Assembly (NCBI GenBank): GCA_965235115.1
Contig: OZ249436.1
Span: 25,608,001 to 25,672,000 of the forward strand
DNA from: Laetmonice hystrix
Lineage: Eukaryota
Direction: 5' to 3'
Length of the DNA stretch: 64,000 bases
Below, one piece after another: positions 5,192 to 52,200 of the stretch; within the stretch, counting starts at the first letter, position 1, and each line of letters begins with the position of its first letter. Both the position numbers and the translations under genes were made by a program. The notes under the pieces were generated by a model, which was not told the DNA's origin, ran no database searches, and saw nothing but the letters and a program-made list of their open reading frames with translations.

Positions 5192-5195
5192 TTTA

Positions 5196-6080: not shown

Positions 6081-6083
6081 AGT

Positions 6084-9656: not shown

Positions 9657-10106
9657 GGTGCCTAGAAACAAACCAAAGGCGAACAGCAGGAGACTCTATG
9701 TGGCATGTAGGCACTAGGTAAAGGTGTTAAAATTGATGTGACGCAACTGAATCAATCAGCCAGATAAATAATGATAGAAACCCAACATTGGCATGAAAAT
9801 GAATAACATAATCCAACATTGCCACGAAATTGGACAATAAAATCTGAGAAATCCGAGCATGTGACTGGGCATAATAAAAAACGACTGACAATCGAGACAA
9901 GAACAATCAAGATAAAATCACTACAAAAGACAATAAATACTTGTCGAGTATGAGGTAGTGACACGAGTATATATGTATATAGCATGAGTGGTGACTTGGG
10001 ATTGTAAACTGAAATAGGAACACACATAGAATTAGTTTGGTGGGAACAAAATATGGTTATCCAGTTGCAGCAGGGAGAGGGCTGACCAACCGCACGGTGA
10101 CAGATG

Positions 10107-10450
10107 ATAGCAGCTATGTGGGGCTGCAAGGCTAACAAGCCTGTTGACAGGTGACAAGGAACTATGTGGGGTTGCAGTAGGTTATAACAAGCATGGTGAC
10201 AGGTGACAAGCAGCTATGTGGGGCTGCAGTAGGCTATAACAAGCCTGTTGACAAGTGACAAGCAGCTATGTGGGGCTGCAGTAGGCTATAACAAGCCTGT
10301 TGACAAGTGACAAGCAGCTATGGGGGGCTGCAGTAGGCTATAACAAGCCTGTTGACAAGTGACAAGCAGCTATGGGGGGCTGCAGTAGGCTATAACAAGC
10401 CTGTTGACAAGTGACAAGCAGCTATGTGGGGCTGCAGTAGGCTAACACGC
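10107..10450. repeat. 52-bp minisatellite in the Ngaro 5' region
   Basis: AGCAGCTATGTGGGGCTGCAGTAGGCTATAACAAGCCTGTTGACAAGTGACA at 10261, 10313 and neighbouring positions; about 6 copies. Confidence 0.9.
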
Positions 10451-10796
10451 CTATTGACATAAATTAGATAGGCAGGTATCAGGAGCTGAAAATGGGATAG
10501 CGACCTGTTGAGAGGTATTATAACTTATAAACAGGTATGTGGGGCTGCGGTAGGGTAATAAGCCTGTTGGGATGGCGGACCAGGCGAGTGGCGTGGAAAT
10601 GGGTGGAAGCCTGTTGGAGCGGAACTCTGGGGCTCCGAACTACACATTATCTCCAGTGAGTACAGTCTTGGTGGAGTGACCCCCCCCCCTCGCTGAAATG
10701 CAAAACATGTAATTGGGTCCCGCTACCTGAAAATTATCCAGTACTTATTAAAAAGGCTTCGGGCAGAGGAGACACAAAAAAAGGGGGGGGGGGTGA

Positions 10797-11411
10797 TTAA
10801 CACTCCAAGCATTTAATAATGGCACTCTTGACATTCCTGGTATATTTCCTCATTCCGTCGGAGTTGAGATGGGTGCCGTCCGGACACAGGAACGAACTCG
10901 GGTCCGAGTAGAGGCCACGCTGTGGGCAGAAGACGAGAGAATCGGATACTTGGGAAGCATCCCTGAGTTTATCATTCGCCTGTTGAAAAACAGCATTAAA
11001 ATCAGATCGGGTACGTCGTTTGCCCCCCCGTGTGTTGGGGATAAGGCGGGGAATGATGCCGAACATAATTACTAAGCGGACATCTGGTAAATCAGCGATT
11101 TCTCTTGCCAAAGAAACAATGGCGGACCCCACCGAATCTGGGTCAGCGTCCCGCAGAGCTAGGTCGTTGGTGCCTATATCGAGCAGAATGTGGGTCGCCT
11201 GCAAATCCCACAGAAAAGGGATTAACTCGGCCCTCAAAGCCGCAACGTTGGCGCCCGGGTATCCCTGTAAGAAGAAGGAGAAATCTTTTCTGAGATTGAA
11301 CCGTAGATCGCAAGCGTGGTTCTCCCGCCTATCCTTCAGCAGGCGAGATACGAACGAATGGCCCGCCAAGACGATGGTTGGGGGGGCCGTCATAGCGGCC
11401 ATTGCATGCAT
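10797..11411 (-). CDS. SGNH/GDSL hydrolase (esterase) carried by the Ngaro element
   Basis: All four SGNH blocks: IVLAGHSF (I), GYPGA (II), IGTNDL (III), DGTHLN (V). Confidence 0.9.
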   Translation of the reverse strand: MHAMAAMTAPPTIVLAGHSFVSRLLKDRRENHACDLRFNLRKDFSFFLQGYPGANVAALRAELIPFLWDLQATHILLDIGTNDLALRDADPDSVGSAIVSLAREIADLPDVRLVIMFGIIPRLIPNTRGGKRRTRSDFNAVFQQANDKLRDASQVSDSLVFCPQRGLYSDPSSFLCPDGTHLNSDGMRKYTRNVKSAIIKCLEC

Positions 11412-11589
11412 TGCAGGAAATTAGCTCGAAGTTTGAGGAGAGCTGTATATGTGAGCAAAAAACACCCAAACAGGGGCAGCACTTACGTTGGCAAAGGGTG
11501 TCCCCGCTCGGTGCTGTTGGGTCCGATGAAGGATGTCAAACTTGATGAGGTGTGGCGATGCCAGGGGCGGCAAAAAACGCACAAAAAAG

Positions 11590-11788
11590 ATGGACTTGTT
11601 AGAAGTAGTTGTTTCGCGTACGGTTGACTTGAAACAAAGAGATCGTGACCTCTGCTGATTGGCTAATCAGGGGGTCAACGTAAAAAAGGCACCAGGGGGC
11701 GATGGTGTGTGTTGTAGGTAACCGTAAGGAGTCGCCACCTTGTCCACCTCCCAAGTTTGATAAATTGCATTATGGCTATAATGTTGTA
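11590..11788 (-). repeat. Ngaro split direct repeat A1 (5' terminus)
   Basis: Copy of 4993-5191; contains CTGATTGGCTAATCAG (CCAAT on the minus strand). Confidence 0.93.
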
Positions 11789-14700
11789 TTTAATTAATGG
11801 GCTCCGCAGCACCAACCCACTGCATTAACATTTGTTTACCAGCTTAGCGCACCTTGTAAAATTTTTTCAAGTGCGTAAAAATGCGTGTCCACCTCCACAT
11901 ACTTTAAAAATCACTATACCCACCCAGCGACATCCACTCTAATACACGCCTAAAAGGAACTTCACTGTCCCATTTGATTCTCCAGCACGTATAGGATGTT
12001 TCAAGTAACATTCATCCACGGTCTGGCCCAATAACGTGCAACAAGGCATAGTAAGTCAATGCGAGCTCGCATGTCAAACCTAACCCGCCCCCCAGCACAT
12101 GAGCTGAAAATATTCAAATAGCTTGAAAACTAGAATATAGCTTTGCTTAATACCATTATACCATCAACTCGCATTACAGGCCTAATGCGAAGCTCCCAGC
12201 CTAAAACGAGTTTCCAATTAATTTAAAGTTAACAAGATGCACTAATAATCGATTCCAAGCCTAATTAGGCCATTGCTAGTTGGATAACCAAATCTCATAC
12301 AAAATACACCCTCCCGGCAGATGACCTGAGAATATTCAACTCTTATGTCCGATATATCCCTGTCCGCTTAGTAGCACCCAGCCGTGCCCCCATTTTGACA
12401 TTGAAACACCAATACAGCAAGTGCCCAGCTAACAGCACAAATAACAGGATTCAGGGCTTCCTACCACGTTACAAGTCACAATAGATTGCTGCCTGTCGTA
12501 AAAATATACCAGACCATTTTAAAAAGTCACAGAACCCCAATCCGGCCCTAATATGTCACTCCCAGTACCAATACACGCTGGAAGCACCATCAACTGAAAT
12601 TCACACCTAGAACCCACCTCTCTCTACCAATATCATGCACCTAGTCCGTATACGAGGTTGTAATTTACTTTAATCAACGGGCTGCGCCGCAGCAACCCAC
12701 TCTGGTCTTTGCAATCTTTTTCAATATGCGTTAACATTTGTGACCAGCTCAACGCGCCTTGTAAAATTTTTCAAAGTGCGTAAAAGTGTGTGTCCACCCC
12801 GACACGCTTTCCAAACCACTATACCCACCGAGCGACATCCACTCAAATACAGGCTTCGACCGATCCTCACTGTGCCAATAATCCGCCACAAGGCAAATTC
12901 AGTCAATGCAAGCTGGAAAATCGAATGTCAAACCTAATGCTCCCGCCCCCAGCACGTTAACTGAAAATAATCAACTAGCTTGAAAACTAGAATATAGCTT
13001 TGTTTAGCTAACAATCTACTCTCCCAGCGCCATCAACTCGCATACAGGCGTAAAAGCAAACGCACTGCCCCATATAATGCTCCCAGCCTAAAACGATGTT
13101 GCAATTAATTTAAAATTAACAAGATGCACTAGTAATCCGATCCAAGCCTAATTACGTCATTGCTAGTTTCATAACCAAATCTCACAGAAAATACCCCACC
13201 CGGGCACATAACCTGAAAATATTCAACTTTTATCTCCAATGTATCCCTGTGCACCTAGTAGCACCCAAGCGGGCCCAATTTTGACATTCCAACACAAATA
13301 CCGCAAATACCCGCACAAAAAACTTTCTACCCCGTTGCAAGTCACATTAGCTTGCTGCTTGTCGTAAAAAAATGGTGCAGACCATTTCTAAAGTCACAGT
13401 ACCCCACTCCCGGCCTAATATTACGTTTGAGTATCCATATACGCTGCAAGCGGCAGGAACTCGAATACAGGCCTAAAAGTAACCCCAGTCTAGCAATATC
13501 ATACTCCCATGCCATATACGAGCTTGTAATTATCTTTAATTAATGGGCTCCGCAGCACCAACCCACTGCATTAACATTTGTTTACCAGCTCAACGCACCT
13601 TGTAAAATTTTTTCAAGTGCGTAAAAATGCGTGTCCACCTCCACATACTTTAAAAATCACTATACCCACCCAGCGACATCCACTCTAATACACGCCTAAA
13701 AGGAACTTCACTGTCCCATTTGATTCTCCAGCACGTATAGGATGTTTCAAGTAACATTCATCCACGGTCTGGCCCAATAACGTGCAACAAGGCATAGTAA
13801 GTCAATGCGAGCTCGCATGTCAAACCTAACCCGCCCCCCAGCACATGAGCTGAAAATATTCAAATAGCTTGAAAACTAGAATATAGCTTTGCTTAATACC
13901 ATTATACCATCAACTCGCATTACAGGCCTAATGCGAAGCTCCCAGCCTAAAACGAGTTTCCAATTAATTTAAAGTTAACAAGATGCACTAATAATCGATT
14001 CCAAGCCTAATTAGGCCATTGCTAGTTGGATAACCAAATCTCATACAAAATACACCCTCCCGGCAGATGACCTGAGAATATTCAACTCTTATGTCCGATA
14101 TATCCCTGTCCGCTTAGTAGCACCCAGCCGGGCCCCCATTTTGACATTGCAACACCAATACAGCAAGTGCCCAGCTAACAGCACAAATAACAGGATTCAG
14201 GGCTTCCTACCACGTTACAAGTCACAATAGATTGCTGCCTGTCGTAAAAATATACCAGACCATTTTAAAAAGTCACAGAACCCCAATCCGGCCCTAATAT
14301 GTCACTCCCAGTACCAATAGACGCTGGAAGCACCATCAACTGAATTTCAGGCCTAGAACCCACCTCTCTCTACCAATATCATGCACCTAGTCCGTATACG
14401 AGGTTGTAATTTACTTTAATCAACGGGCTGCGCCGCAGCAACCCACTCTGGTCTTTGCAATCTTTTTCAATATGCGTTAACATTTGTGACCAGCTCAACG
14501 CGCCTTGTAAAATTTTTCAAAGTGCGTAAAAGTGTGTGTCCACCCCGACACGCTTTCCAAACCACTATACCCACCGAGCGACATCCACTCAAATACAGGC
14601 TTCGACCGATCCTCACTGTGCCAATAATCCGCCACAAGGCAAATTCAGTCAATGCAAGCTGGAAAATCGAATGTCAAACCTAATGCTCCCCCCCCCCAGC

Positions 14701-18546: not shown

Positions 18547-18548
18547 CT

Positions 18549-20468: not shown

Positions 20469-20483
20469 GATAATTCGATTGTA

Positions 20484-33158: not shown

Positions 33159-34808
33159 AACAAGGCATAGTAAGTCAATGCGAGCTCGCATGTCAAACCT
33201 AACCCGCCCCCCAGCACATGAGCTGAAAATATTCAAATAGCTTGAAAACTAGAATATAGCTTTGCTTAATACCATTATACCATCAACTCGCATAACAGGC
33301 CTAATGCGAAGCTCCCAGCCTAAAACGAGTTTCCAATTAATTTAAAGTTAACAAGATGCACTAATAATCGATTCCAAGCCTAATTAGGCCATTGCTAGTT
33401 GGATAACCAAATCTCATACAAAATACACCCTCCCGGCAGATGACCTGAGAATATTCAACTCTTATGTCCGATATATCCCTGTCCGCTTAGTAGCACCCAG
33501 CCGGGCCCCCATTTTGACATTGCAACACCAATACAGCAAGTGCCCAGCTAACAGCACAAATAACAGGATTCAGGGCTTCCTACCACGTTACAAGTCACAA
33601 TAGATTGCTGCCTGTCGTAAAAATATACCAGACCATTTTAAAAAGTCACAGAAACCCAATCCGGCCCTAATATGTCACTCCCAGTACCAATACACGCTGG
33701 AAGCACCATCAACTGAAATTCAGGCCTAGAACCCACCTCTCTCTACCAATATCATGCACCTAGTCCGTATACGAGGTTGTAATTTACTTTAATCAACGGG
33801 CTGCGCCGCAGCAACCCACTCTGGTCTTTGCAATCTTTTTCAATATGCGTTAACATTTGTGACTAGCTCAACGCGCCTTGTAAAATTTTTCAAAGTGCGT
33901 AAAAGTGTGTGTCCACCCCGACACGCTTTCCTAACCACCATACCCACCGAGCGACATCCACTCAAATACAGGCTTCGACCGATCCTCACTGTGCCAATAA
34001 TCCGCCACAAGGCAAATTCAGTCAATGCAAGGTGGAAAATCGAATGTCAAACCTAATGCTTCCCCCCCCCCCCCAGCACGTTTACTGAAAATAATCAACT
34101 AGCTTGAAAACAATCTACTTTCCCAGCGCCATCAACTCGCATACAGGCGTAAAAGCAAACGCACTGCCCCATATAATGCTCCCAGCCTAAAACTAGGTTG
34201 CAATTAATTTAAAATTAACAAGATGCACTAGTAATCCGATCCAAGCCTAATTACGTCATTGCTAGTTTCATAACCAAATCTCAGAGAAAATACCCCACCC
34301 CGGGCACATAACCTGAAAATATTCAACTTTTATCTCCAATATATCCCTGTTTGCCTATTACCACCCAACCGGGCCGAATTTTGACATTGCAACACAAATA
34401 CTGGAAATACCCGCCTAATGGCGCAAATAACTTTCTACCCTGTTGCAAGTCACATTAGCTTGCTGCCTGTCGTAAAAATGGTGCAGACCATTTCTAACGT
34501 CACAGGACCCCCACTCCCGGCCTAATATTACGTTTTCAGTATCCATTATGCTGCAAGCAGCAGGAACTCGAATACAGGCCTAAAAGTAACCCCAGTCTAG
34601 CAATATCATACTCCCATGCCGTATACGAGCTTGTAATTATCTTTAATTAATGGGCTCCGCGGCACCAACCCACTGCATTAACATTTGTTTACCAGCTTAA
34701 CGCATCTTGTAAAAAATTTTCAAGTGCGTAAAAATGCGTCTCCACCTCCACCCACTCTAAAAATCACTATACCCACCCAGCGACATCCACTCTAATACAC
34801 GCCTAAAA
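33159..34808. repeat. 1753-bp satellite array, block 3
   Basis: Resumes in register after the LINE; the A monomer here carries the right-arm variant alleles. Confidence 0.96.
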
Positions 34809-36202
34809 ACGGCGGAAAATTAGTATTATTACTAATTAGGAAATTCTTAAGAAGTCGTAGTTGCCCAGACGTCGGTTTCACAGGGGCGTGTATGCGGGAC
34901 GAAATGTGGCTAAGTATCAGTTCCCTTGTTTTCCGCCTATAAATAATGGTGTCGTTGTGTGCATGGTTTGGTGCACGCGGAGAAGCGTTGTTTACTAGCA
35001 ACGCCTGGTTGTTAGGGTCGCGTTCAGTATGGCCGCCATGTTGTGAGTCTTGAGGATTCGGTCAACTGTGAAAGGGCAACATAATTTAACAAAGGACTCG
35101 GAAAGGTTTCTTCATGAACTATAGTGTCTTACAGCTTTACCAGTTACTGCAATTTTGGCGACTTGCGGCTCTTTTCATATGTGATGGTTGTTGGCCACGC
35201 TTGACTAGGTTCGGCCGGGTGTCCCCGGTTGAGGCGACCACATAGCCTATCATAGGCCTACATGTGTGACATTGGTTTAGCACCACGACTCCATGAGAGT
35301 CAATCCAGTCGGTAGTCAGAATTGGTGTTCATGCTCCTACTTACTGCTTACAGATGATAGTTCTCTACTAAATTTGAAGTTGTATAGCGTTGTTATAGCC
35401 TGCTGTCCCCAACAGTGAGTAGGCCTAGTGCTCAGTAGTTAGGCATTCAGGGTCTCGTTTTAGGAAAACTTTGCAGCATTATATTAAATATGTTTCAACT
35501 GGGAATGCGTATTTACACTGTTATACCATGTTACTATTGTTAGTGCGCTTATGGTCAGTAAATCTATGACATACCTTGGGGATACTTTAATAATCTAAAT
35601 TAGAAATACTTTGGGTCTCTTGTTATTTGAGTGAGTAGTCCTTACAAATGTAAGGATTCTCAGTTAGTAATATACCTCTCAGCCTGATTCACGCTAAAAA
35701 TAATTTGTTTCATGTTCATTATCCGCGCGCCAAATTTCCTAGGTTAGGACTTCTTTGTTACTAATGGTGCTTGTCTTTTAATGTTATAAATCATTGTTTT
35801 TCATCTGATACATGTATAAAAGAGACTGCCATTTCAGATTATGATAGAAGTATTAGAACAGTCTCCCAATGGAAATCGACTTTGGCATTTGTGAAGAGGA
35901 GCTCTTACATGTGAACTCAGATTCCTCGTTCTATATTAACGGGTAGGCCTACTTGGGTGGAATCTTCAAAATTTCTTCGTGAATATACCTTCCCTCTGTA
36001 CGTTCTGGCCTTTCAGAGTTGATGTTGTTATAATGCCTTCACATCCCACTTACATAATATAACCTAGATAGTACTTTCACCAGCTTTACGTAATGATAAC
36101 GAAGATCCCCGCCGCCAGTGGTTCAGCAGTTAATGGTCCCTTATTATTGTGAATTTGCAGGAGGCCACTAGTGGTAAGGGCATTTTGGTTGCGGTCGGTT
36201 AA

Positions 36203-36680
36203 AGGTAATATGGCACGAATTTCAAATAATACGTCGTGTTTCAGCAAAAATATGTCTGCAATACGGTTCTCCTATATATGTTCTAAAGGTCCCCTACCTG
36301 TTTATGTAGCTTTGGCCAGTAATTTTTTATCTTAATGTGGTCTCTGAAAATGACACGCTTAGATTCTGAGACCCCGGGAAGTGCAGCCATCTGGGTTTTG
36401 CACCCTTTTCACGATCGGCGGATGGGCCATTATAGTCCCACTGTTTACATCTCTAGTAATCACAGCGAGAGTCACGTGATCATGGGACCCATTTAAACGA
36501 TTCACGGCAGCCATATGGCAGATTCATAGCACTTTGCGGACAATGCAGCTAGTTTATTCATTTCTGTACAATGTTAACAGAATCAATATGAAAAACAATC
36601 CGTGCCATAAAGTACGTCATGGGTGAGCAGTTAACCAGAAAACTAAGATTTCGGTTGATACCCCCTGGGACATATTTCCT
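36203..36680. mobile_element. Kolobok-like MITE
   Basis: TTAA on both sides; termini AGGTAATATG / CATATTTCCT. Confidence 0.72.
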
Positions 36681-36729
36681 TTAAGGTGTGTGAGGACATT
36701 CGCAGCCCGACTTTGGGTTGCCGGTACTA

Positions 36730-37245
36730 ATGGTCTATGCCTGTATCCATTGTGTCCGAGAAGGGCTGTATAAAACCACACCAGTTCCTATCGTGATGGT
36801 CTATGCTTATACCCATTGTGGCCGAGGCTGACGGTCTGTATAAAATCACACCAGTTCCTATCGTGATGGTTTATGCTTATGCCCATTGTGGCCGAGGCTG
36901 ACGGTCTGTATAAAATCACACCAGTTCCTATCGTGATGGTCTATGCTTATGCCCATTGTGGCCGAGGGTGACGGTCTGTATAAAATCACACCAGTTCATA
37001 TCGTGATGGTCTATGCTTATGCCCATTGTGGCCAAGGGTGACGGTCTGTATAAAATTACACCAGTTCCTATCGTGATGGTCTATGCTTATGCCCATTGTG
37101 GCCGGGGGTGACGGTCTGTATAAAATCACACCAGTTCCTATCGTGATGGTCTATGCTTATACCCATTGTGGCCGAGGGTGACGGTCTGCATAAAACCACA
37201 CTAGTTCCTATCGCGATAGCATATGCTTTTATCCCTTGTGGCCGA
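36730..37245. repeat. 70-bp minisatellite
   Basis: CCAGTTCCTATCGTGATGG (with minor variants) at 36781, 36851, 36921, 36991, 37061 and 37131; degenerate copies again at ~38190-38410. Confidence 0.92.
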
Positions 37246-37253
37246 AACGTATA

Positions 37254-37970
37254 TATCGGGTGGATAAAAAAAAAACGCCCCGAACTTTCAACTTTAATAT
37301 TTCAAAAACTATGCATTATAATTCAATAAAATTTCTCTTAATATCACTTCATGATATTATCTCTAGTATGTTAAAGTTTTAGCTCAATAGTTGTGATATT
37401 AATTCCGTGGCGCTAAAAACAAAAATCACTGTCTAAAAACACAATGCCGGAATTAGGTCAAATATCATGCAGCTGCCAGGTGTCCAATTTGGTACCTGTT
37501 TGATGCATCGCCTTGTACCTTGGGTAAAAACATTTTCAATATTTAGTTTTTGCATGTTTTACAATATGTATAATGTTGTGGACCACTAGATATAATAAAT
37601 TATGTGCTATTCCTAGTACTTTTAGAGAAAAACAGATGTTTAATGTGCCAAACCCTACAGAGAAACTGCAACATGAGGACGATATGACTGTAACCAGAAG
37701 TTCAAGGGAAATCGTATCATTATCACGTTTAGCAACACACTCAGAACGTTGCATATTTTCCAATGTTGGGAAGATATTTTCCTATCAGAGATCAGGAAGT
37801 GCATTAATATGGAAAAAGAGACTGAGTGCAGTATGAAGTGAAAACGGGGGACCGATTGACCACCTACTCTAGTGTGAGGCCAGGCACTGCTTTTGTACAA
37901 TGAATTACAATCATTACTTTTTGAGATATTGAAGTTTAAAGTTCGGGGCGTTTTTTTTATCCACCCAATA
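37254..37970. mobile_element. Tc1/mariner-like MITE
   Basis: TIRs TATCGGGTGGATAAAAAAAAAACGCCCCGAACTTT / AAAGTTCGGGGCGTTTTTTTTATCCACCCAATA flanked by TA; related copy at 57576. Confidence 0.82.
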
Positions 37971-39304
37971 TAAGATCACACATCCTAAGAGCTTTTAGCA
38001 TGAAGAATATTCAGTATATCGGAACACCAGAGCAGAAATGTTGGGGCGACGTTACATTTTACAAGGTTACCCTAAGCTTACAGCCTCCACCCTCTCCACC
38101 ACCACCGAAGTCAACTCAGGTGGAGATCTTCCAGAGTGCAACAACTAACCGAAAAAATGTGGCGTATATCTTTTGTGACCAAAGATTACGGTATGTATAA
38201 AATTGCACCATTTCCTATTGCTTATATCCACTGTGGACGAAGGTTACGACATGTGTAGAATTGCACCATTTCCTGTCGTGATGGTCTATGCTTATATCCA
38301 TTGGGCCCGAGTTTGACGGGCTGTATAAAATCACACCAGTTCCGATCGTGATTGCATGTGCTTTTATCCATTGTGGCTGAAGGTGACAGTATGTAAAAAA
38401 TCGCACTTCCTGAAAGCTTTCAGTTTGAAGAATTTCGGAACACCGCGGCAGAAATGTCAGGACATGTAGTTGATTATTTATTCTCATGGGGGGTGTTTCA
38501 TAAACCGGTGTCGTTAGTCGCACGACTAACTACAGTGTCGCACGATGCTGTCGTGTTTCATAATATTACTTTAGTGTCGCACGATAGAAACAACTACCGA
38601 TGGGTTTACTGTAGTTACTTTCTGTTTCATAAAGAAATCGTACGACTAACTACAGGAATCGTGCGACAGTATTACTGTGGTAACCGGCGACACCCCAGGG
38701 GGGGGGGTGTCGTAGGATTTTAAAAAGAGGCGCAGGACCTCTTTTTGAAACCCAATATGTGGGTTCAAACTTCAAACTTCAACATGGCGGAAGGAGGGCA
38801 CGTGTTAGAAGTGAGAAGAGATAAGGCGCCGAAAATATACCACCCGCGTCTGGACCCAATCGGCCACTTCCCGGTCCATCAGTTTCTAAGACGGTATATA
38901 GAATTGATCGGCAATCTGCAGTGGAGCTTTGTGGTGCATATGAAAGAGGAGGGTAATGCACCACTCACTGCACAGGACCCCAGATGTGGAGGGTTAACTG
39001 CCATTCAACGAATACGTATACATGTATATTATTTAATGTGAAAGGAAAGGTATGTAATGAATTTATAACTTTAATATATCTGATAAATACCTGTAGTGTT
39101 TCCAGCTGTTTGGCATGTAAGATTTATTGAAAATTTTAACATAATTATTTCAATGTCGGATATCAGGAAAAAAATTAAATAAACTCTGGCCTCCTAAACT
39201 GTGTCACTACGCCACCCCTGCACACATATAGTTCTTGTCTTGCTGTAAAATAATGACTATAGTACTAATCAACAATGATGAACTAAATAAAAAATAAAAA
39301 GATT

Positions 39305-39377
39305 TGTATCGGCTGGGATTCGAACCCGAGACATCTGCCATGAAGGTCCTACACTCTAACACGGAGCCAACCATACA
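39305..39377 (-). pseudogene. tRNA-derived sequence (pseudogene or SINE head)
   Basis: Minus strand has an A-box-like TGGCTCCGTG, B-box GGTTCGAATCC, a partly paired acceptor stem and a downstream T run. The anticodon arm does not pair. Confidence 0.6.
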
Positions 39378-39435
39378 CGGTGATAACTTAGGCCTATGTA
39401 TTATGTCATAATTTGTGTTATAGCAGGCATACTAC

Positions 39436-40080
39436 GTCATAGGTCACGTGACCTAAAAATATGTCTATTGGTGTTGAATAGGAACTATGGGTCCAAGTTC
39501 GACCATTTACAAGTTATAGCCTTGAGAAAATATAGATTACCTCCTTATGACTTTCTACCAGTGTTTACTAGGAACTATGGTTTTATCTTCAACCATTTAC
39601 AAGTTACACCCATAAGAAAAGAAAGATCATATCCCTATAAGGTCATAGGTCATGTGACCTAAAAAATGGTGTCAAAGGAAAGAGCATATGCGACTTCCTA
39701 TTAGCATTTAATAGTAACTGTGGCTCTACGTTCAACCAGTCACAAGTTATAGCCCTGTGAATATATAGATAATCTCCTGATGATGTCATAGGTCACGTGA
39801 CCTAAAAATAATGGTGCCAAACAGAAGAGCATATGACTTCCTATTAGTGTTCAGTAGTAACTATGACCCTAAGTTCAACCATTTACAAGTTATAGACCTC
39901 TGAATATATAGATCATCTCCTGATGACGTCATAGGTCATGTGACCTAAAAAATAATGGTGTATAATGAAAGAGCATATATGACTTCCTATACATATTCCA
40001 TAGAAAGTTTGACTCTATCTTGCACCTTTGTTGAGTTATAGCCCTATATTCAGACTCATGTTCGAGGTCACGTGACTTCC
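39436..40080. repeat. Degenerate repeats containing TCATAGGTCACGTGACCTAAAAA
   Basis: The motif recurs at about 39438, 39643, 39786 and 39929. Related reverse-oriented sequence lies at 61400-62220. Confidence 0.7.
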
Positions 40081-42508
40081 TCAATACCATCGTTACGTTA
40101 CATGTCGTGGAATCGTGCGACACTACAACTATATTTTTGACGACAGCACCTACGACATTTACAAGTGTCGGACGACAAAATCTTCGATTTACTTACTAAC
40201 TACATTTGTTGTGGACGACAATTTTTATGAAACGAAATGAACGACAGGTCGGGCGAAGATCGTCCAGCCAGTGTCGTCAACGTCCGACAATGACGACTAA
40301 CGACACCAGTTTATGAAACACACCCATGGTTGTGATGAGCCCCGCCATTTGGTGGATTGGCAGTATGCTGTCCCGTTTAAGATGGTTGCCTGTTAATAAG
40401 TACGTGGTCGCGTTTATTCCTCGTCAGAAAATTTTGCAAAATGTGGTCTGTCGCCTCCTTATTTTATTCGCCAGGATGGCCTTAGGTGTGGTTGTGGCGA
40501 GATTATCAGTTGAAGATGATGTTCATGGCACAGTGGGATTGGACAGCAGATCAGTATGTCATTGGAGGTTAATCCTGAGCATACAACAGGAAGAATATAT
40601 CCGGCATAATGGAAGACACTGACATAAGAGATGAGTGGTGTATATATGGATGCAGCGTCTGCTACGTGTTTCCTGTACGGAAGACGCGAACCTATAGGAG
40701 GCTTTTGTAGGCGCTATGTATCAGGTGGTATTACCCTTGTGTCCCAAGCGACTGAGAGGGTTATGTCTAGAACAAATCTTGCAAATTACTAGTTGTCATG
40801 ATAATGTCATATATGACTTCGGCTTACTGAAAATTTTGATCTGTTGTGGAGGTCGTGAAGATTAATTGTAATTATGATTATCTCTCTGGACATGGCATGA
40901 TTCGTTGCATAATCCTATGTGTATATATATGATATATATTGTGCTTGACGCATGTTGGATGTAATATTCTGTGGTGTGCTGACGGTTTTAAAGTTTGTCT
41001 AGTTCTTGTTAATGGAACAACACTTGTTGTAGGTGTGTTTATTTCATTTCCTCAGGTGCAAGGATGAAGATAGAGGTCGTTCACGTAGCATCGAATTCGG
41101 TGATGTTCAACTAGTTTGGAATCCGAGAAAGAAATGGATGGGGTCCAGTTGGCTTAGAAATGATCAAACCAATGTTGTGCTCGGCACCTCAGGAGCCCCT
41201 GTTTAGGGCAGTTTCTCAAAGCAGTGGATATAAGGTTTAACAGTTAAGGCCCATGGTGTCGACGATGATTACAGTAAGAACCATTTGAAGTGGTCTTCCC
41301 GCAGTTGTGGGGACTACTTTTTCTCTTACCAGAGTTAGTGGTGGATTTGGTGAGCCAAAGGTGTGGCTCTGCAAAAAGGGGTCGCTTATTCTCATACCAG
41401 CAGGTGCCCAATGTACGGAGCAATGCTTCCAGTCGGTCTTGGGGCAGGTACCATCAAGTTAAGGTTGTCTTCCCGCAGCTGTGGGGGCTACTTCATCTGG
41501 TAGGAGTCTAATTGGATTGTCTGAAGCGATAACGGCAAAGTCGTGTTTCTACGGCAAAAGAGCTGCTTTTATTCATATCTTCAGGTGGCAGAATTAACAG
41601 ACCCATGGGTTCGACCGACTTACGCTGAGGATCGTCAGGCTAAGATTGTCTTCCCGCGGCTGCGGGGACTGCTTCTTTTCCCACCGGAGTTTGGATTCAA
41701 CAGGCCCTTAATTTGAGTTAGGTTGCCTGAAACACCGCAGCGCCGAGGCAAACTAGTAGTTATACAGCTGAGAGAATGGGTTCATCTCATATCATCAAGT
41801 ATTGGAGTTTGCGTGCTCTTGGGTTCAAGATGACCTACACCAAGTACTCTCGAGCAAATTGTCTTCCTACAGCTTAATTGTTAATACTTCAGCTTGTTCA
41901 TATTCACCAGGCTCTTTACTATGCTGGGACAAAGGTATGCGTCTGCAGCTGAGAGGGGGGCTGCTTCTCATATCATCGAGTATAAGGAGGATCAGTGAAC
42001 TCGTGAATTTAAGCTCACTTACGCCGGTGCCATTCAAGCTTAAGTCGTGTTGCTGCAGCTGAAGGAACGGCTTCTTCTCACATTCAGAAGGTATCTGATT
42101 AGCAGGTCCATGGGGTCCATGAACTAGCCATGCATAGTCACAACATGAGGATGCTGGGAAATTCATAAAACGTGTATTAGGTGGAGTTCCTATGCATACC
42201 AGTATAATATTAGTGAACGTTAATGTAATGACAAAATAAGAACTGGAGTTATGTTCAACTGGTGTATAAAAGGCCAGAATTCTGTTAATCTGGTTACCAG
42301 GCGGATCGTTCAGGTGTTCAGAGAATTTAGTACACCTAGAGGTCTTTATACTCCAAACAGATTTTCCCGTCTTGGTAGGGGTTTTTCGCCAGAGTATGTA
42401 CGTTCCCTTGCCAGTTGCGTTCTAGGTTAGGTTATCTGGGAGGTCAGCCATTTTACTCTCCCAGAGCTTGTGGTTGTTGGGCCCAGGTTGACCTGTGGTC
42501 ACCCGGTT

Positions 42509-43394
42509 GGCCGTTGGGCCCAACTGCTACAGGAGTCTGACGTTACTCTTCCAGTAGCCACGGGAGTAACTGGATGGGAGTTCCGCCTTCTGGACAACGA
42601 TTCCACTACGTTATGCCACTTCCCGTAGAAACGGGGTGACGGTTATTGTAATATTTAAAGACTGTCTCCGATAATAGACTCATTCATGATTGTAGAGGAC
42701 TTGTTGACATGTTGTTGTCCATGCCCGAGGCATCGGGAGGACAACCTGTACACCAAACTTCAATCTGTAACCTGGAAAAGAAAACTTTGTTGTTGAATAG
42801 TAGAAATAAATATTTCTACAAAAGGGTGTGCGCGTTTGTCTGACTGAAAACGGCATTTTGTGAGCGAAATAGCATTTCAGTCAAGACAACAAGCGCCAGA
42901 TTTGTTTGCCTATATGACGGAACTGGTTGGTCGGTGGGGCATGCTGGGAATGCCCCCTCGCGGTAGTTTTAACGTTCGCATACGTTTGAGATCAGCCACT
43001 TTGCACCAGGACGCCATTGGAACAAGTTGTTACCCGCCCCCACCCCTGGCGCCTCCTGTTCTTGGAAGGCGTCTTTTGGTCTCCAGGGGCCGTTGGGCCC
43101 AACTGCTACAGGAGTCTGACGTTACTCTTCCAGTAGCCACGGGAGTAACTGGATGGGAGTTCCGCCTTCTGGACAACGATTCCACTACGTTATGCCACTT
43201 CCCGTAGAAACGGGGTGACGGTTATTGTAATATTTAAAGACTGTCTCCGATAATAGACTCATTCATGATTGTAGAGGACTTGTTGACATGTTGTTGTCCA
43301 TGCCCGAGGCATCGGGAGGACAACCTGTACACCAAACTTCAATCTGTAAACTGGAAAAGAAAACTTTGTTGTTGAATAGTAGAAATAAATATTT
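42509..43394. repeat. 307-bp direct repeat pair (42509-42815 and 43088-43394) bracketing the internal junction copy
   Basis: Near-identical copies at offset 579, each ending in AGAAATAAATATTT. Confidence 0.93.
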
Positions 43395-45519
43395 TTATGC
43401 AGGCAACACTCGGAAACAGATAATGTTGTTATTTGGGCAACACCCGTTTATTATAATATTAAAAATATAAGTTGGACAGTGAGCCCACACTGCACGTGTC
43501 CAACATTAATTAAAGGTTTAGGACAATTAGGTTATTTCTGAACAGAAAGGGTGTCACCATCCCATTTATGACAATGAGCCCACACTGCATTGTCATGGGA
43601 ATAGATATGGTAGAAAATTACAACTAACGGTAACAATAAGTAAATGTCCATGAATTGGTATTACTCTTGACAGTGAGTCCACACTGCACCGTCTCGAAAC
43701 CATTAATGTCTATGTTCCCAAATCTAAAAATAGGAACATTATCGTTCAAAAATATGTGTTAAAGGGTTAAAAATGTGTTGAACAGTTAAATGTGAGTGGC
43801 GACGCAGGCCACTAACCTGCTTGGAACAAGCAGGTGGAGCCACCCACAACACACAGTGCAGGGATGCAGGGAAATGAAACGCCCATTCTGCAACCGATGC
43901 AAATCATCTGCTTTCCCTTGTTTCCTTGATTCTTTGAAGGTCAAGTTGAGTTAATGATTGTGTCACAAATGTTATGGTATGAAACTCAACCATGGAGTTT
44001 CAAATATATTCCCCACACAGGGCAACTGCAAAAAGAATGGAGGTATAGCTCCAATAAAAACATCTTGTCGATCCAACGAAGATGGACACCGGCTAGGCCT
44101 ATTATCTAGTCAGATCCGAAAAACCGCTCCAAATCCCACTTTAACTGAAGCGTCCATACCAAGTTTCAAGGAGACACCGCGATTGTTGGTGAAAAACATT
44201 CTTTTGCTAATATTATATGATCATACAGATCACACACGTAGATCTGCCCTTGCACCACTGCATCTGGCCACAGCAAGAATGGTCTGGAAGAGACTGGGAG
44301 TACCCAGTCAAGGCTCAGGCCGGGCCGAACTCCCATGTCCAACCTCCCTGAACAGTCGTAAATGGGAACTGTCTGGACACCAGCCGCGAATCCTTGCGAA
44401 ATAGTCGAGGCCGACCCGGTTCCGCTTGACCCATAATGAGACGCTCCCTCTTGCATGGGGGCATGGAGATCGGAGAATTCCGTGGGAGCTTGGGCTTGGA
44501 CCTCAATCGTGTAGTCGCCATCATGAACAGAAGCCGTACAAGGGAACAGGCCAGGGTAACAACCCGCTCATTGAAGTTGATTGAATTGAAGGGCTCATTG
44601 TAGAGCCAAAGTCAATGACAAAACCCCCAGATTAAATAATTCATGTTGTGTATAACATTGGCCGTATAGGGCAAGTATAATATTATACTGAATAATTCAT
44701 TTAGCATAATGTAAATCGTTACGTAATATACGATTATGAAATTGAACTGATATCTACGAATTTGATGATAGAGATAAGCCTAGATGATATGTCAATCAGT
44801 GGCGAAAAACCATGGTTTACATGTAATAATAATACATATACATGTATAATAACATAAATGTAATATAATATAAATTGAACGTAAATCAAATGTTAGGCAC
44901 ACATGTGATACTGATAGGCTGCTAATCCAGGGGAAACCCACGATCTCCCAATGGCATATACGGCCAACAAAATATTGTTAATATTATAATAATGTATCTC
45001 TGAAGCAGCAAAAAGTAAAATAAATATACATGTAAATATAAAGAGACTGAACATTTGAACTGCTGTCGCGCTGATCCAACAGAACACTCGATGGTCTCTC
45101 AATGGCTGAGCCTAACAGTGAACACAATATTTATGTCGTGAACGTATCACATCACTTGATGTAATTGCAACGTAAATAAAATGGTTAAATGTGAGCCAGA
45201 TCTTAGATGGGCTGCAAACTCAGGACAGTCGAATCCCAGCGATCTCTCATTGGCATTGGCATATATGCAGTGGCCAATATCAATTAACTATAATGTTGAA
45301 TCACTGAAGCAAAAAGTATAATAATATAAATATTAAGAGACTGAAAATTTGGGACTGGTATGTCATATGAGGCCAATATCAAGTAAATATAATATTGCAT
45401 CACTGAAGCAAAGACAAAGTATATTATATAATCTCAATAAAAAAGACTATGTATCGTGTACATGTCACATCAACAGTAATGAAGTAAAGTAATACAGTAT
45501 GAATTGAAATAAATCAGTC

Positions 45520-46380
45520 GGGTAAATGTGAGCCAGACATGAGAAGGGCTGCTAATTCAGCATAAGCCCAACGATCCCTCAATGTCATATCAGGCCAATA
45601 TCAAGTAAATATATTGCATCACTGAAGCAGAGACAAAGTATAATATCTCAATAAAAGAGTCTATGTATCGTGAATATATCACATCAACTGAGGTAATATA
45701 ATATGAATTGAAACAAATCAATTGGGTAAATGTGAGCCAGACATGAGAAGGGGCCGCTAATCCAGCATAAGCCCAACGATCTCTTAATGTCATATCAGGG
45801 CAATAGCAATAATATATTGTATCGCCGAAGCAAACACAAAGTATTGAAACAAAATCAATTGGGTAAATGTGAGCCAGACATGAGAAGGGGCTGCTAATCC
45901 AGCATAAGCTCAACGATCTCTTAATGTCATATCAGGCCAATAGCAATAATATATTGTATCGCCGAAGCAAACACAAAGTATTGAAACAAAATCAATTGGG
46001 TAAATGTGAGCCCGACATGAGAAGGGCTGCTAATCCAGGATAAGCCCAACGATCTCTTAATGTCATATCAGGGCAATAGCAATAATATATTGTATCGCCG
46101 AAGCAAACACAAAGTATTGAAACAAAAATCAATTGGGTAAATGTGAGCCAGACATGAGAAGGGCTGCTAATCTAGCATAAGCCCAACGATCTCTCAATGT
46201 CATATCAGGCCAATAGAATAATATATTGTATCATCAAAGCAAAACAAAGTATTGAAACAAAATCAATCGGGTAAACTAAATGTGAGCCAGACATGAGAAG
46301 GGGTTGATAATCCAGCATAAGCCCAACGATCTCTCAATGTCATATCAGGCCGATAGAATAATATATTGTATCGCCGAAGC
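45520..46380. repeat. ~137-bp tandem array
   Basis: AATGTGAGCC at 45729, 45866, 46003 and 46140; degenerate copies back to ~44900. Confidence 0.88.
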
Positions 46381-46389
46381 GAAGTAAAA

Positions 46390-48125
46390 TGTAGCAATAA
46401 TAAATTAATAGAGACTGAAAGAAAATTAGAACTGCTGATCAAAGAGAAAACCCAATAGTTTCCCGATGACAGAGCCCAACACAAAAATATATATACATGT
46501 ACGAGGTATAAATCCCATTAATATCAATCATAATCAAATGTGACCAATAATGAAGAGAACCAAACGGTCTCCCAATAAGGTCTAAATACAGCATTAATAA
46601 GGTGTATAATGTAGCAATAATAAAAATATAAAGACTAAAAAGAAAATTGGAACTGCTGATCAAAGAGAAAATATGATAGTCTCTCGATGACAGAGCCCAA
46701 CACAAAAATATATACGGGATATAAATCCCATTAATTCCAATCATAAAAATAAAATGTGACCAATAATGAAGAGAACCAAACGGTCTCCCAATAAGGTCTA
46801 AATATAGCAATAATAAGGTGTATAATGTAGCGATAATAAAAATATAAAGACTGAAAAGAAAACTGGAACTACTGATCAAAGAGAAAACATTATAGTCTCT
46901 CGATGACAGAGCCCAACACAAAAATATATATGCGGGATATAAATCCCATTAATATCAATCAATCATAATAAAATGTGACCAATAATGAAGAGAACCAAAC
47001 GGTCTCCCAATAAGGTCTAAATATAGCAATAATAAGGTGTATAATATAGCAATAATAAAAATATAAAGACTGAAAAGAAAATTGGAACTACTGATCAAAG
47101 AGAAAATATGATAGTCTCTCGATGACAGAGCCCAACACAAAAATATATATGCGGGATATAAATCCCATTAATATCAATCAATCATAATAAAATGTGACCA
47201 ATAATGAAGAGAACCAAACGGTCTCCCAATAGGTCTAAATATAGCAATAATAAGGTGTATAATATAGCAATAATAAAAATGTAAAGACTGAAAAGAAAAT
47301 TGGAACTACTGATCAAAGAGAAAACAGTATAGTCTCTCGATGACAGAGCCCAACGCAAAAATATATATATACGGGATATAAATCCCATTAATATCAATCA
47401 ATCATAATAAAATGTGACCAATAATGAAGAGAACCAAACGGTCTCCCAATAAGGTCTATAGCAATAATAAGGTGTATAATGTAGCAATAATAAACATATA
47501 AAGACTGGAAAGAAAATTGGAACTGCTGATCAAAGAGAAAACATGATAGTCCCTCGATGACAGAGCCCAACACAAAAATAAAGGATATAAATCCCATTAA
47601 TATCAATCATAATAAAATGTGACCAATAATGAAGAGAACCAAACGGTCTCCCAATAAGGTCTATAGCAATAATAAGGTGTATAATGTAGCAATAATAAAC
47701 ATATATAAAGACTGAAAAGAAAATTGGAACTACTGATCAAAGAGAAAACAGTATAGTCTCTCGATGACAGAGCCCAACACAAAAATATATATACGGGATA
47801 TAAATCCCATTAATATCAATTAATCATAATAAAATGTGACCAATAATGAAGAGAACCAAACGGTCTCCCAATAAGGTCTATAGCAATAATAAGGTGTATA
47901 ATGTAGCAATAATAAACATATAAAGACTGAAAAGAAAACTGGAACTACTGATCAAAGAGAAAACAGTATAGTCTCTCGATGACAGAGCCCAACACAAAAA
48001 TAAGGGATCTAAATCCCATTAATATCAATCGTAATAAAATGTGACCAATAATGAAGAGAACCAAACGGTCTCCCAATAAGGTCTAAATATAGCAATAATA
48101 ATAAGGTGTATAATGTAGCAATAAA
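46390..48125. repeat. ~210-220-bp tandem array
   Basis: AAATCCCATTAAT..GTGACCAATAATGAAGAGAACCAAACGGTCTCCC repeated about 8 times. Confidence 0.92.
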
Positions 48126-49284
48126 ATATATATATATACAACACACGTAGCCAGATTAATTAAACAGGCCCCGTAACGTACAATATACGGGATACATATC
48201 CCAATAATATCAATCATCATTCACAAATATGCTGTAAATAATGTATAAAGAAACCGTGGCCAATAGAATGAATTTAATGTAGGCCTAATAATAATATCAG
48301 GTTAAGGTAGCATTTATACAATAACTTACATGTGTAGGGAAACATTGGCAATAGGAAATAACCAATGAATGATGGATGAAAACAAAACGGTCACTCTTGT
48401 AGATCTACTCTCGCACGCCAAAATTAATTGTTCAGTAACAACATGGCATTTTAATAGACACGACACGTAGCCACCCGTCCTCAGAGCCAACGTCAAACAC
48501 TAAGTCAATAAGTGACTAACGAGGTTACTAGATTCTAAACTAGTACTAGTAGATATACAATGTAGTCATAACTAACGTCGTTAGATTAAACGCTAATGTA
48601 GGCTCAGGCTAACTATCATAAGACAAGTCGATCCAGTTAGACCGGCTAGCCTAGTGACCCAGGACTAGTGTCTATCATTATCAATCAACTAGATCTATAA
48701 CAAAACTACAGCCACATTCACTAGATCTAGATCTACCCCGATAGTAAAGAACTAACGGTGACGTTAAATTCGGATTCACTCTAGAACTAAACTCCTTGGG
48801 TATCTGTGACAGGACGACGAAGATGAATGCTAAGACGTACCCAGACGCCATTTTGCTTACCCTAATTCCTAAGAGATATAAAGATGGCTAAACCTAGGCC
48901 AACAGACTATGCCTAGAAAATGAAAGCAAGTACAAAAGACGGGTGACCATTTTATAAAGACGTGACTAGAAACCCAACCTCGGATGAACTAAAATTAAGA
49001 CGATTGAGAGTGATAAAATGCGACCGTTGACACTGAAAACCGTTACCCTGCTTGTCTTGAAGAAAGTGGGAAGATTCAAGGACAACGTCACGGTCGTCAA
49101 CCGGTTGCGGCATGATGCATGATGGGATTCGGCGTGACATAATTATTCAACACATGACCCAGAAAGTTGTTGCCATGACGGCGCTGATTCAGACAGTAGG
49201 CCTCTCGTGTTTTCCTGCATAAAATTCGTTGAACCTTCGGTTACAACGTGCCTCTACAAAAGGGTGTGCGCGTTTGTCTGACTG

Positions 49285-52200
49285 AAAGGAACTTCACTGT
49301 CCCATTTCATTCTCCAGCCCGTATAGGATGTTTCAAGTAACATTCATCCACGGTCTGAGCCGATACCCTGCAACAAGGCAGAGTAAGTCAATGCGAGCTC
49401 GCATGTCAAACCTAACCCGCCCCCCAGCACATGAGCTGAAAATATTCAAATAGCTTGAAAACTAGAATATAGCGTTGCTTAATACCATTATACCATCAAC
49501 TCGCATTACAGGCCTAATGCGAAGCTCCCAGCCTAAAACGAGGTTGCAATTAATTTAAAATTAACAAGATGCACTAGTAATCCGATCCAAGCCTAATTAC
49601 GTCATTGCTAGTTTCATAACCAAATCTCAGATAAAATACCCCACCCCGGGCACATAACCTGAAAATATTCAACTTTTATCTCCAATATATCCCTGTTTGC
49701 CTAGTACCACCCAACCAGGCCAAATTTTGACATTCCAACACAAATACTGGAAATACCCGCCTAATGGCGCAAATAACTTTCTACCCTGTTGCAAGTCACA
49801 TTAGCTTGCTGCCTGTCGTAAAAATGGTGCAGACCATTTCTAACGTCACAGGACCCCCACTCCCGGCCTAATATTACGTTTTCAGTATCCATTATGCTGC
49901 AAGCAGCAGGAACTCGAATACAGGCCTAAAAGTAACCCCAGTCTAGCAATATCATACTCCCATGCCGTATACGAGCTTGTAATTATCTTTAATTAATGGG
50001 CTCCGCGGCACCAACCCACTGCATTAACATTTGTTTACCAGCTTAACGCATCTTGTAAAATTTTTTCAAGTGCGTAAAAATGCGTCTCCACCTCCACCCA
50101 CTCTAAAAATCACTATACCCACCCAGCGACATCCACTCTAATACACGCCTAAAAGGAACTTCACTGTCCCATTTGATTCTCCAGCACGTATAGGATGTTT
50201 CAAGTAACATTCATCCACGGTCTGGCCCAATAACGTGCAACAAGGCATAGTAAGTCAATGCGAGCTCGCATGTCAAACCTAACCCACCCCCCAGCACATG
50301 AGCTGAAAATATTCAAATAGCTTGAAAACTAGAATATAGCTTTGCTTACTACCATTATACCATCAACTCGCATTACAGGCCTAAAGCGAAGCTCCCAGCC
50401 TAAAACGAGGTTCCAATTAATTTAAAATTAACAAGATGCACTAATAATCGATTCCAAGCATAATTAGGCCATTGCTAGTTGGATAACCAAATCTCATACA
50501 AAATACACCCTCCCGGCAGATGACCTGAGAATATTCAACTCTTATGTCCGATATATCCCTTTCCGCTTAGTAGCACCCAGCCGGGCCCCCATTTTGACAT
50601 TGCAACACCAATACAGCAAGTGCCCAGCTAACAGCACAAATAACAGGATTCAGGGCTTCCTACCACATTACAAGTCACAATAGATTGCTGCCTGTCGTAA
50701 AAATATACCAGACCATTTTTAAAAGTCACAGAACCCCAATCTGGCCCTAATATGTCACTCCCAGTACCAATAAACGCTGGAAGCACCATCAACTGAAATT
50801 CAGGCCTAGAACCCACCTCTCTCTACCAATATCATGCACCTAGTCCGTATACGAGGTTGTAATTTACTTTAATCAACGGGCTGCGCCGCAGCAACCCACT
50901 CTGGTCTTTGCAATCTTTTTCAATATGCGTTAACATTTGTGACCAGCTCAACGTGCCTTGTAAAATTTTTCAAAGTGCGTAAAAGTGTGTGTCCACCCCG
51001 ACACGCTTTCCAAACCACTATACCCACCGAGCGACATCAACTCAAATACCGGCTTCGACCGATCCTCACTGTGCCAATAATCCGCCACAAGGCAAATTCA
51101 GTCAATGCAAGCTGGAAAATCGAATGTCAAACCTAATACTCCCCCCCAGCACGTTAACTGAAAATAATCAACTAGCTTGAAAACTAGAATATAGCTTTGT
51201 TTAGCTAACAATCTACTCTCCCAGCGCCATCAACTCGCATACAGGCGTAAAAGCAAACGCACTGCCCCATATAATGCTCCCAGCCTAAAACGAGGTTGCA
51301 ATTAATTTAAAATTAACAAGATGCACTAGTAATCCGATCCAAGCCTAATTACGTCATTGCTAGTTTCATAACCAAATCTCACAGAAAATACCCCACCCGG
51401 GCACATAACCTGAAAATATTCAACTTTTATCTCCAATATATCCCTGTTTGCCTAGTACCACCCAACCGGGCCGAATTTTGACATTCCAACACAAATACTG
51501 GAAATACCCGCCTAATGGCGCAAATAACTTTCTACCCTGTTGCAAGTCACATTAGCTTGCTGCCTGTCGTAAAAATGGTGCAGACCATTTCTAACGTCAC
51601 AGGACCCCCACTCCCGGCCTAATATTACGTTTTCAGTATCCATTATGCTGCAAGCAGCAGGAACTCGAATACAGGCCTAAAAGTAACCCTAGTCTAGCAA
51701 TATCATACTCCCATGCCGTATACGAGCTTGTAATTATCTTTAATTAATGGGCTCTGCGGCACCAACCCACTGCATTAACCTTTGTTTAACAGCTTAACGC
51801 ACCTTGTAAAAAATTTTCAAGTGCGTAAAAATGCGTGTCCACCTCCACACACTTTAAAAATCACTATACCCACCCAGCGACATCCACTCTAATACACGCC
51901 TAAAAGGAACTTCACTGTCCCATTTGATTCTCCAGCACGTATAGGATGTTTCAAGTAACATTCATCCACAGTCTGGCCCAATAACGTGCAACAAGGCAGA
52001 GTAAGTCAATGCGAGCTCGCATGTCAAACCTAACCCGCCCCCCAGCACATGAGCTGAAAATATTCAAATAGCTTGAAAACTAGAATATAGCTTTGCTTAA
52101 TACCATTATACCATCAACTCGCATTACAGGCCTAATGCGAAGCTCCCAGCCTAAAACGAGGTTCCAATTAATTTAAAGTTAACAAGATGCACTAATAATC

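Follow-up and report, generated by a model that had tools for sequence, protein, structure and literature searches.

An element without genes of its own occupies positions 34805–49287 of a 64,000-nucleotide stretch of Laetmonice hystrix DNA (contig OZ249436.1, positions 25,608,001–25,672,000; hereafter the window, to which all coordinates refer unless a locus is named). It is very probably a unit of ~5.6 kb that carries four nested insertions and follows the order A1-body-B1-A2-spacer-B2. As a whole, the stretch is probably best explained as a gene-less split-repeat element of the Ngaro type, i.e. a tyrosine recombinase (YR) retrotransposon, whose internal circle junction is predicted to fold as a nested stem-loop of four boxes. 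A preliminary description had treated the 14.5 kb as one unit with very short split repeats. Neither point survived, as ~8.9 kb of the 14.5 kb consists of nested insertions, the remainder of ~5.6 kb has the A1-B1-A2-B2 layout and the B repeat measures 341 bp.

The length of the B repeat was established by self-comparison. A segment at 42509–42814 recurs at 43088–43393 (306 bp, 1 mismatch). B1 runs directly into a 35-bp block (42815–42849), whereas B2 reaches the same block (49253–49287, 35/35 identical) after a gap of 5859 bp. Since the first copy is continuous and the second gapped, the full length of B is therefore 341 bp, and an insertion at 43394–49252 interrupts B2. B1 and B2 are identical at 340/341 bp and A1, B1, A2 and B2 stand in the Ngaro-like order, with A1 present as a remnant only. 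A2 plus spacer amounts to 238 bp. The corresponding length is 216–479 bp among seven Ngaro copies, and reaches 519 and 641 bp for two collapsed contigs. The matches of 35 bp and 8 bp between the ends and the internal junction reported previously are real, but the 35 bp are not the full repeat. A single 14.5-kb element truly possessing 8-bp and 35-bp split repeats is highly improbable: A1 does measure 8 bp in the window copy, but the 341-bp B refutes a short B, the nested parts are separable in contigs of the same family and the left end differs in these contigs. Other copies of the element exist in a read sample, from which family contigs were obtained for four read runs (X1–X4). Contigs of X1–X3 join 38484 to 40325, skipping a nested 1.84-kb element, at a depth of 580–920, with the body at ~1200 in X2 and X3.

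The empty target site reads CGCCT-AAAA-GGAAC in 7/7 intact satellite units of the same subunit type. Five A residues are present at the left end (34805–34809), three at the right end (49285–49287) and four at the internal junction, which reads GACTG-AAAA-CGGC (42842–42854). Positions 34806–34813 have the same letters as 42847–42854 (8 bp), an AAA core is common to the junction, the target and both ends, and there is no classical target duplication, as in Ngaro-like elements. The satellite units and both ends thus confirm the target and junction letters and the A count given in the preliminary description. As this count fits a recombinase crossover and equally a duplication-free insertion in an A run, it proves neither origin. 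Misassembly is extremely improbable as the source of the internal junction or of the duplicated B: no single contig of the read sample spans 34805–49287, but one X4 contig bridges the internal junction (42781–43032), one site distinguishes B1 from B2 and both element ends sit in the satellite register.

The internal junction is predicted to form a nested fold in which an outer arm (42835–42849) pairs with 42875–42890 around an inner 6-bp hairpin (42855–42870). Between the 15 final nt of B and the distal arm, 14/15 positions pair, a score attained by 0/5000 random windows. An absence of terminal inverted repeats had been reported for this element and holds, but the B end has this partner across the junction. 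The junction of a neighbouring autonomous Ngaro has the same geometry in unrelated sequence, with arm gaps of 25 vs 24 nt, leads of 5 vs 5, stems of 6 vs 6 and loops of 4 vs 4 (element vs neighbour). Each junction comprises four boxes in alternating orientation, and box 1 closes with AA(A) at the B end. In 8/8 copies the boundary of B2 with the flank coincides with the box-1 edge, and the letters that follow are not those of A. At each of the four left ends available, the half-site of the target is similar to the final letters of box 1. The predicted fold, with two stems around an unpaired centre and the crossover at the outer stem edge, is of the type known for integron attC and CTX-phage attP(+).

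The generality of the fold was examined using 62 aligned YR proteins and 79 metagenome loci (designated by L and a number), of which the 50 with a length of ≥2.5 kb were self-compared; 29/79 loci of <2.5 kb fell outside this comparison. Nine of the 50 loci exhibited a B-like pair downstream of the YR gene, and no Ngaro loci were found in viral contigs. In a nested-fold test, 8/8 junctions passed, six of them from metagenome loci and the others from the element and the neighbouring Ngaro, as compared to 1/24 other repeat boundaries, while 7–18 of up to 250 random positions passed per element. Among BLAST-defined junctions, L058, L062, L072 and L075 passed. The junction of L057 stood outside the test, being split by a ~1-kb insertion with both arms visible, and L074 and L077, which look like copies of the L075 family, were excluded. 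Folds of L026, L007, L002 and L017 were chosen by the fold itself, and are outside the 8/8 but among the 12 junctions of the strand comparison below. A stricter version of the pattern occurred at three sites on the plus strand of the 64-kb window (two junctions and one weak site) and, on the minus strand, at the Ngaro junction as well as at four weaker sites. Across all downstream regions its enrichment was modest, with 13 in 70 kb vs 2–9 in five shuffles; comparison counts were 7 in antisense and 12 in 184 kb upstream. Two further observations were made on these loci. The insertion in L057 (11292–12300) is a ~1-kb element that has terminal inverted repeats, is flanked by TTAA at either side and lies inside box 2 of the Ngaro junction. 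In L079, a 96-bp duplication of the flank (5877–5972 and 12712–12807) surrounds a Ngaro copy in which the first bases of A1 are missing.

Several aspects of this comparison weigh against a general junction fold. Both the pattern and its statistic were built on the element and the neighbouring Ngaro. The BLAST-defined junction of L079 failed, and passed after being moved 10 nt earlier, to the point where exact identity of B1 and B2 ceases, while the junction of L078 was located by the fold pattern itself and the repeat at its contig end begins 3 nt later. L075 fails the strict pattern. As L057, L072, L075 and L079 share an assembly prefix, the independent lineages number fewer than eight. Box 1 is nearly as similar to box 3 as to box 4 in five of nine junctions and, in the family with TTAA boxes, direct repeats alone would fold. 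L002 and L017 fail the test at their repeat ends, yet have a strong fold inside the repeat; because of this internal fold and the spacer motif after the repeat end, we read these repeats as collapsed B+A.

Similar arm-hairpin geometry and insertion into T runs have been described for Helentron ends (PMC4067079, PMC5148889; sources are cited, here and below, for the available parts of their text), a further point against the Ngaro-type reading. The stretch might be two non-autonomous units of Helentron type, arranged head to tail on the minus strand and inserted by rolling circle into a T run without duplication. One unit would measure 580 bp (49287 to 42847, not counting the insertion); the other would be longer (42849 to 34805), with the first 341 bp common to both. 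The asymmetric inverted repeat and 3' hairpin at 42847–42890 fit HINE/Helitron2 ends (PMC4067079, PMC5148889), the 580-bp unit has the inverted-repeat pairing that no random window equalled, and both putative 3' ends read hairpin-GCCG-T run. The A count also fits (the target is TTTT on the minus strand, with TT insertion without duplication) and is not diagnostic; internal minisatellites are present in the element and Helentron nests are common in the window. The longer unit, however, has no matching 3' inverted repeat (3336/5000 random windows score equally), its terminal hairpin (34818–34837) is unmatched by the listed family contigs, and two Helentron-like ends in the window (54044 and 62415) terminate in CTAG, with ~9 nt behind the hairpin and not 4–5. 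The Ngaro layout and spacer motif would also be left unexplained. We regard this alternative, the strongest competitor of the Ngaro-type reading, as unlikely. A Helentron tandem had initially been taken as the somewhat likelier reading, and was dropped in view of the B-pair layout, the failed inverted repeat of the longer unit, the Ngaro junction geometry and the spacer motif.

The Ngaro-type reading has to account for the short A1. In the window copy, A1 matches A2 over 8 bp only, such that this copy lacks the defining Ngaro feature, and this tells against our assignment. Neither A2 nor the spacer had homology to the left end or to the DNA before B1, for which 102 and 57 of 300 background windows score equally. 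The listed family contigs cease to match the window copy at 34847 (X2, X3) or 34838 (X4, with 30 unaligned letters beyond). Depth of the left-end bin in X4 is 25.3, with 25.2 predicted if 34807–34837 is uncovered; all four runs derive from one sample, and depth is not equal to copy number. From the divergence of the family contigs to the left of 34838–34847, we infer that A1 of the window copy was damaged after insertion and that the 8-bp match is probably the remnant of an A1 of ~190 bp. The segment at 34814–34846 might be a templated repair filler, to judge solely by a 9-bp inverted match of 34811–34819 to 34929–34937. Ngaro membership is thus proposed as likely for the family, not for the window copy as an intact element.

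The length of A was predicted from a C-rich motif. CCC[AT]CCC begins 1–2 nt past A2 in 5/6 Ngaro copies with a known A2 end, standing right after A2 in the window Ngaro, L002, L017, L057 and L079, and is lacking in L058, L062, L072 and L075. The single CCC[AT]CCC of the element lies at 43039, 190 nt past the junction and 49 bp before B2, and its place after A2 in the Ngaro copies predicts an A of ~190 bp. This tract may also mark a site of priming or template jumping. Because the short A is probably damage to the window copy, the junction predicted for circles is the internal one (GACTGAAAACGGCATTTTG) instead of the GACTGAAAACGGCGGAAAAT proposed in the preliminary description. X4 contigs cover the A-spacer-B region at depths of 163 and 248 and the body at 28–52, and in an X2 contig of 87% identity the match opens at the A end, next to 30 unaligned flanking letters of different sequence. 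By analogy with SIRE, the deeper coverage and the X2 contig would fit solo A2+B2 units of ~580 bp.

No coding capacity was detected in the element. Pfam matched 0/12 open reading frames (ORFs) of the element and did match the YR, reverse transcriptase (RT) and SGNH ORFs of the neighbouring Ngaro; Rfam gave no match in the element, a Ngaro YR profile found nothing across its six frames and the longest ORF lacked a homologue, all in agreement with the earlier report of no recognisable ORF domains. None of the gag, RT/RNase H, YR and SGNH ORFs of an autonomous Ngaro is present. One of 120 YR homologues matched the element at an E of 0.004 and was rejected, as the YR profile had found nothing. Searches of the element with the neighbouring Ngaro proteins (tblastn) produced only E>1, and blastn/tblastx against the 79 metagenome loci gave no match. 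Two results count against a Ngaro origin, namely that the neighbouring Ngaro and the element have no common sequence beyond a chance match and that no autonomous partner for the element was found. Because of the first, direct descent of the element from the neighbouring Ngaro is unlikely. The element has no terminal inverted repeats and a direct junction copy, unlike DIRS-like elements with their long inverted terminal repeats and inverted internal complementary region, and its 341-bp split repeat and internal junction separate it from Cryptons, which have only 4–6-bp terminal direct repeats and no long repeats (PMC3212892). The class suggested in the preliminary description (i.e. non-autonomous, YR-mobilised, with split repeats and a Ngaro-like partner) is supported, and on stronger grounds than were argued there.

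The element likely moves as a non-autonomous Ngaro-type retrotransposon with borrowed enzymes. Its plus strand would be transcribed and then reverse-transcribed by a Ngaro partner, with the internal B1/A2 copy serving as template for the ends. The B/A junction of one strand is predicted to fold into the four-box nested stem-loop, and the YR would exchange one strand between the folded junction, at the edge of box 1, and a half-site of the target that closes with TAAA(A); replication or repair would complete the insertion, as for CTX-phage attP(+) and integron attC. Single-strand exchange on the folded junction is our tentative choice among three readings that share the probability once a Ngaro-type element is granted, the others being double-stranded use of the four boxes and a role in RNA. 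It is based on the box-1 edge, the sense-strand bias, the likeness to CTX and attC and the single-stranded cDNA of DIRS-1, which is mostly linear and whose circle junction was not amplifiable (PMC7192593). According to the same source, experiments on the specificity of the retrotransposon YR had not been made. As a wider and still more tentative proposal, animal Ngaro-type YR retrotransposons might integrate in the manner of CTX phage and integron cassettes, i.e. as a folded single strand into targets with TAA(A)-like half-sites.

Strand and box comparisons bear on all three readings. The sense strand folds more stably in 11/12 junctions (four of the 12 picked by fold), and isolated stem mismatches in the 12 junctions comprise five G.T on the sense strand, none on the antisense and nine others. 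Complementarity of box 1 to box 4 is 11–12 of 12 (window Ngaro, L062 and L026), compared to a box1/box3 identity of 4–9 of 12. It is doubtful that the boxes of a Ngaro-type element are instead YR binding sites on double-stranded DNA, with homology-independent exchange and with folding as a by-product of symmetry. Such sites would agree with the near-periodic TTAA boxes of L072, L075, L078 and L079, with a Cre-like YR and with the inverted repeats around a 6–8-bp spacer of YR sites (PMC3212892), but not with a family-specific box1/box4 complementarity that exceeds box1/box3 identity, the strand asymmetry or the same crossover edge at all 8 right ends. Rather unlikely is a junction fold of a Ngaro-type element that acts in RNA (template jump, packaging or priming), with integration of a double-stranded circle. 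This circle is the standing model (PMC7192593), and the sense-strand bias and G.T pairs would fit a role in RNA; the stem, however, stops at the crossover point in every junction and there is no overlap homology past box 1. Set against folded-strand exchange are the equal fit of the sense-strand bias to a role in RNA, the expectation that first-strand cDNA would be the antisense, weaker-folding strand, the TTAA boxes, for which symmetry is enough to produce a fold, and a YR profile that is nearest to Cre among solved structures, integron integrase being absent from 18 matches.

The 5.86-kb insertion in B2 shows how such ends can be confused. One X4 contig joins its last 30 letters to its first letters, confirming the limits 43394–49252. 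It has features of HINE/Helitron2 elements (i.e. a 10-bp asymmetric inverted repeat, a 3' hairpin, a TT target and a head-to-tail form), and is ambiguous between a Helentron-type HINE on the plus strand and a second YR-type element on the minus strand. The minus-strand junction starts CCTGCATAAA, resembling box 1 of L017, and from its sequence the insertion may represent a second YR family whose A2-spacer was lost through B1 x B2 recombination. The head-to-tail junction has the arm-hairpin-arm geometry of Ngaro junctions, such that Helentron and Ngaro ends are confusable. HINE/Helitron2 elements, with their asymmetric inverted repeat, hairpin, T-run target, tandem arrays and head-to-tail junctions (PMC4067079, PMC5148889), are a good fit for this insertion, but leave the 341-bp split-repeat layout and Ngaro spacer motif of the host element unexplained.

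Table 1. Features of the element, its flanks and the other large insertions in the window
Feature	Position	Strand	Remarks
Neighbouring autonomous Ngaro	4683..11792	-	A 203 bp, B 240 bp, core TTTA; YR (6084-7094), RT and SGNH ORFs; same junction fold at ~5165-5205
LINE-like insertion with nested LTR-type element	~15545-33158
Left flank	33159..34808	+	1753-bp satellite unit (887+866 dimer), terminating in target half-site CACGCCTAAAA
Element with nested insertions	34805-49287		Third large insertion in the satellite
A1 remnant (shared AAA + ACGGC)	34806..34813	+	Same as 42847-42854
Segment replacing rest of A1	34814..34846	+	8-bp hairpin; probably private to window copy, putative repair filler
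Non-coding body, multi-copy	34847..42508	+	~2-4% from listed family contigs; 70-bp minisatellite and three nested MITE-like elements
Nested terminal-inverted-repeat element	36203..36680		TTAA at both sides; contig depth jump
Nested high-copy MITE	37252..37972		Long terminal inverted repeats; within 70-bp minisatellite; depth 300-500k
Nested 1.84-kb terminal-inverted-repeat element	38489..40325		Missing from other family copies
B1 repeat, 341 bp	42509..42849	+	Closes with box 1 (…CTGACTGAAA)
B1/A2 circle-junction copy	42835..42890	+	Four-box nested stem-loop; crossover at box 1 edge
A2 repeat, ~190 bp	42850..43038	+	End inferred from C-rich motif
A2-B2 spacer	43039..43087	+	Opens with CCCACCC; element has no other CCC[AT]CCC on either strand
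B2 5' part	43088..43393	+	306 bp, 1 mismatch vs B1
5.86-kb non-coding insertion splitting B2	43394..49252		137- and 219-bp arrays, terminal hairpin
B2 3' stub and right end	49253..49287	+	35-bp repeat of the preliminary description
Right flank	49288..50176	+	Satellite continues from GGAAC; monomer a chimera of both subunits
Helentron-like nest	from 53072
LINE, long interspersed nuclear element; LTR, long terminal repeat; MITE, miniature inverted-repeat transposable element.

The framework of the window is an array of a 1753-bp satellite, each unit of which is a dimer of 887 + 866 bp. This array is interrupted by the four large insertions of Table 1, each at a different unit position (window 1–53071). 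The LINE, LTR and Helentron labels are our reading of ORFs and ends, made independently of database results. The satellite subunits are ~73% alike, and the satellite also carries a 325-bp tandem duplication (1040–1685). The LINE-like element (15545–33158) has ORFs of 232, 215 and 973 amino acids, an A-rich tail, an AACAA duplication and a 191-bp array; its 215-amino-acid ORF has a NADAR-like appearance. Nested within it is the LTR-type element, with gag-, pol- and env-like ORFs. The Helentron-like nest (53072–64000) exhibits 5' hairpins and CTAG-TT ends, and has MITE and 143-bp repeat segments in common with the nested insertions of the element. Inside the nested 1.84-kb element, positions 39300–39380 form a tRNA-like stretch, possibly the remnant of a short interspersed nuclear element, with no Rfam match at the gathering score. 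On the plus strand of the body, 34929–35045 contains two motifs, TATAAATA (~34939) and GCCGCCATGTT (~35033), which we take to be promoter-like.

A conserved fold that ends at the crossover defines the oligonucleotide to be used as substrate, the position of the cut and the compensatory mutants for testing, and provides a structural signature for classifying non-coding YR elements, with the warning that Ngaro and Helentron ends can resemble each other. If true, folded-strand exchange would amount to a eukaryotic structure-specific single-strand recombinase, would account for the mere 3–4 nt shared with targets and would supply a sequence-independent signature for locating gene-less YR elements. 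No description of the junction fold was found in the Ngaro/DIRS literature at the level of titles and abstract openings, the founding Ngaro papers being outside this scope. None of six junction or hairpin terms is present in PMC3783388, and only split or short direct repeats are described in the available text of PMC13465315 and PMC3212892.

Among known systems, the parallels to the predicted fold are bacterial. In CTX-phage attP(+), two box pairs fold back, one strand is exchanged and replication finishes the process (PMC3442271), while in integron attC an unpaired spacer is bordered by two stems and 3 nt are conserved (PMC2727003). Both resemble the element in their fold-back boxes around an unpaired centre and in having little homology to the target (PMC3442271, PMC2727003). 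They differ in being served by XerCD or IntI, whereas the Ngaro fold is a prediction, its YR is Cre-like and conserved extrahelical bases were not found. With Ngaro-like YR retrotransposons the element shares the A1-body-B1-A2-spacer-B2 order (PMC9210276, PMC6681497), near-identical B1 and B2 of a few hundred bp and an A/T-rich core at both ends, and the Ngaro copies compared here have the same junction fold and spacer motif. The element differs from them in the lack of gag, RT/RNase H, YR and SGNH, in the 8-bp remnant of A1 and in the split B2. SIRE of trypanosomes, an A2+B2 unit of VIPER (PMC6681497), is a precedent for the ~580-bp A-spacer-B unit, but the window copy retains its body and B1. 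TOC1 of Chlamydomonas, the non-autonomous version of the YR retroelement TOC3 (PMC5613634), is likewise YR-dependent, and the element is distinguished from it by an animal-type genome and a Ngaro-type junction. As TOC1 exemplifies, gene-less YR elements are already known (PMC5613634); the element alone is therefore ordinary, and the new part is the junction fold.

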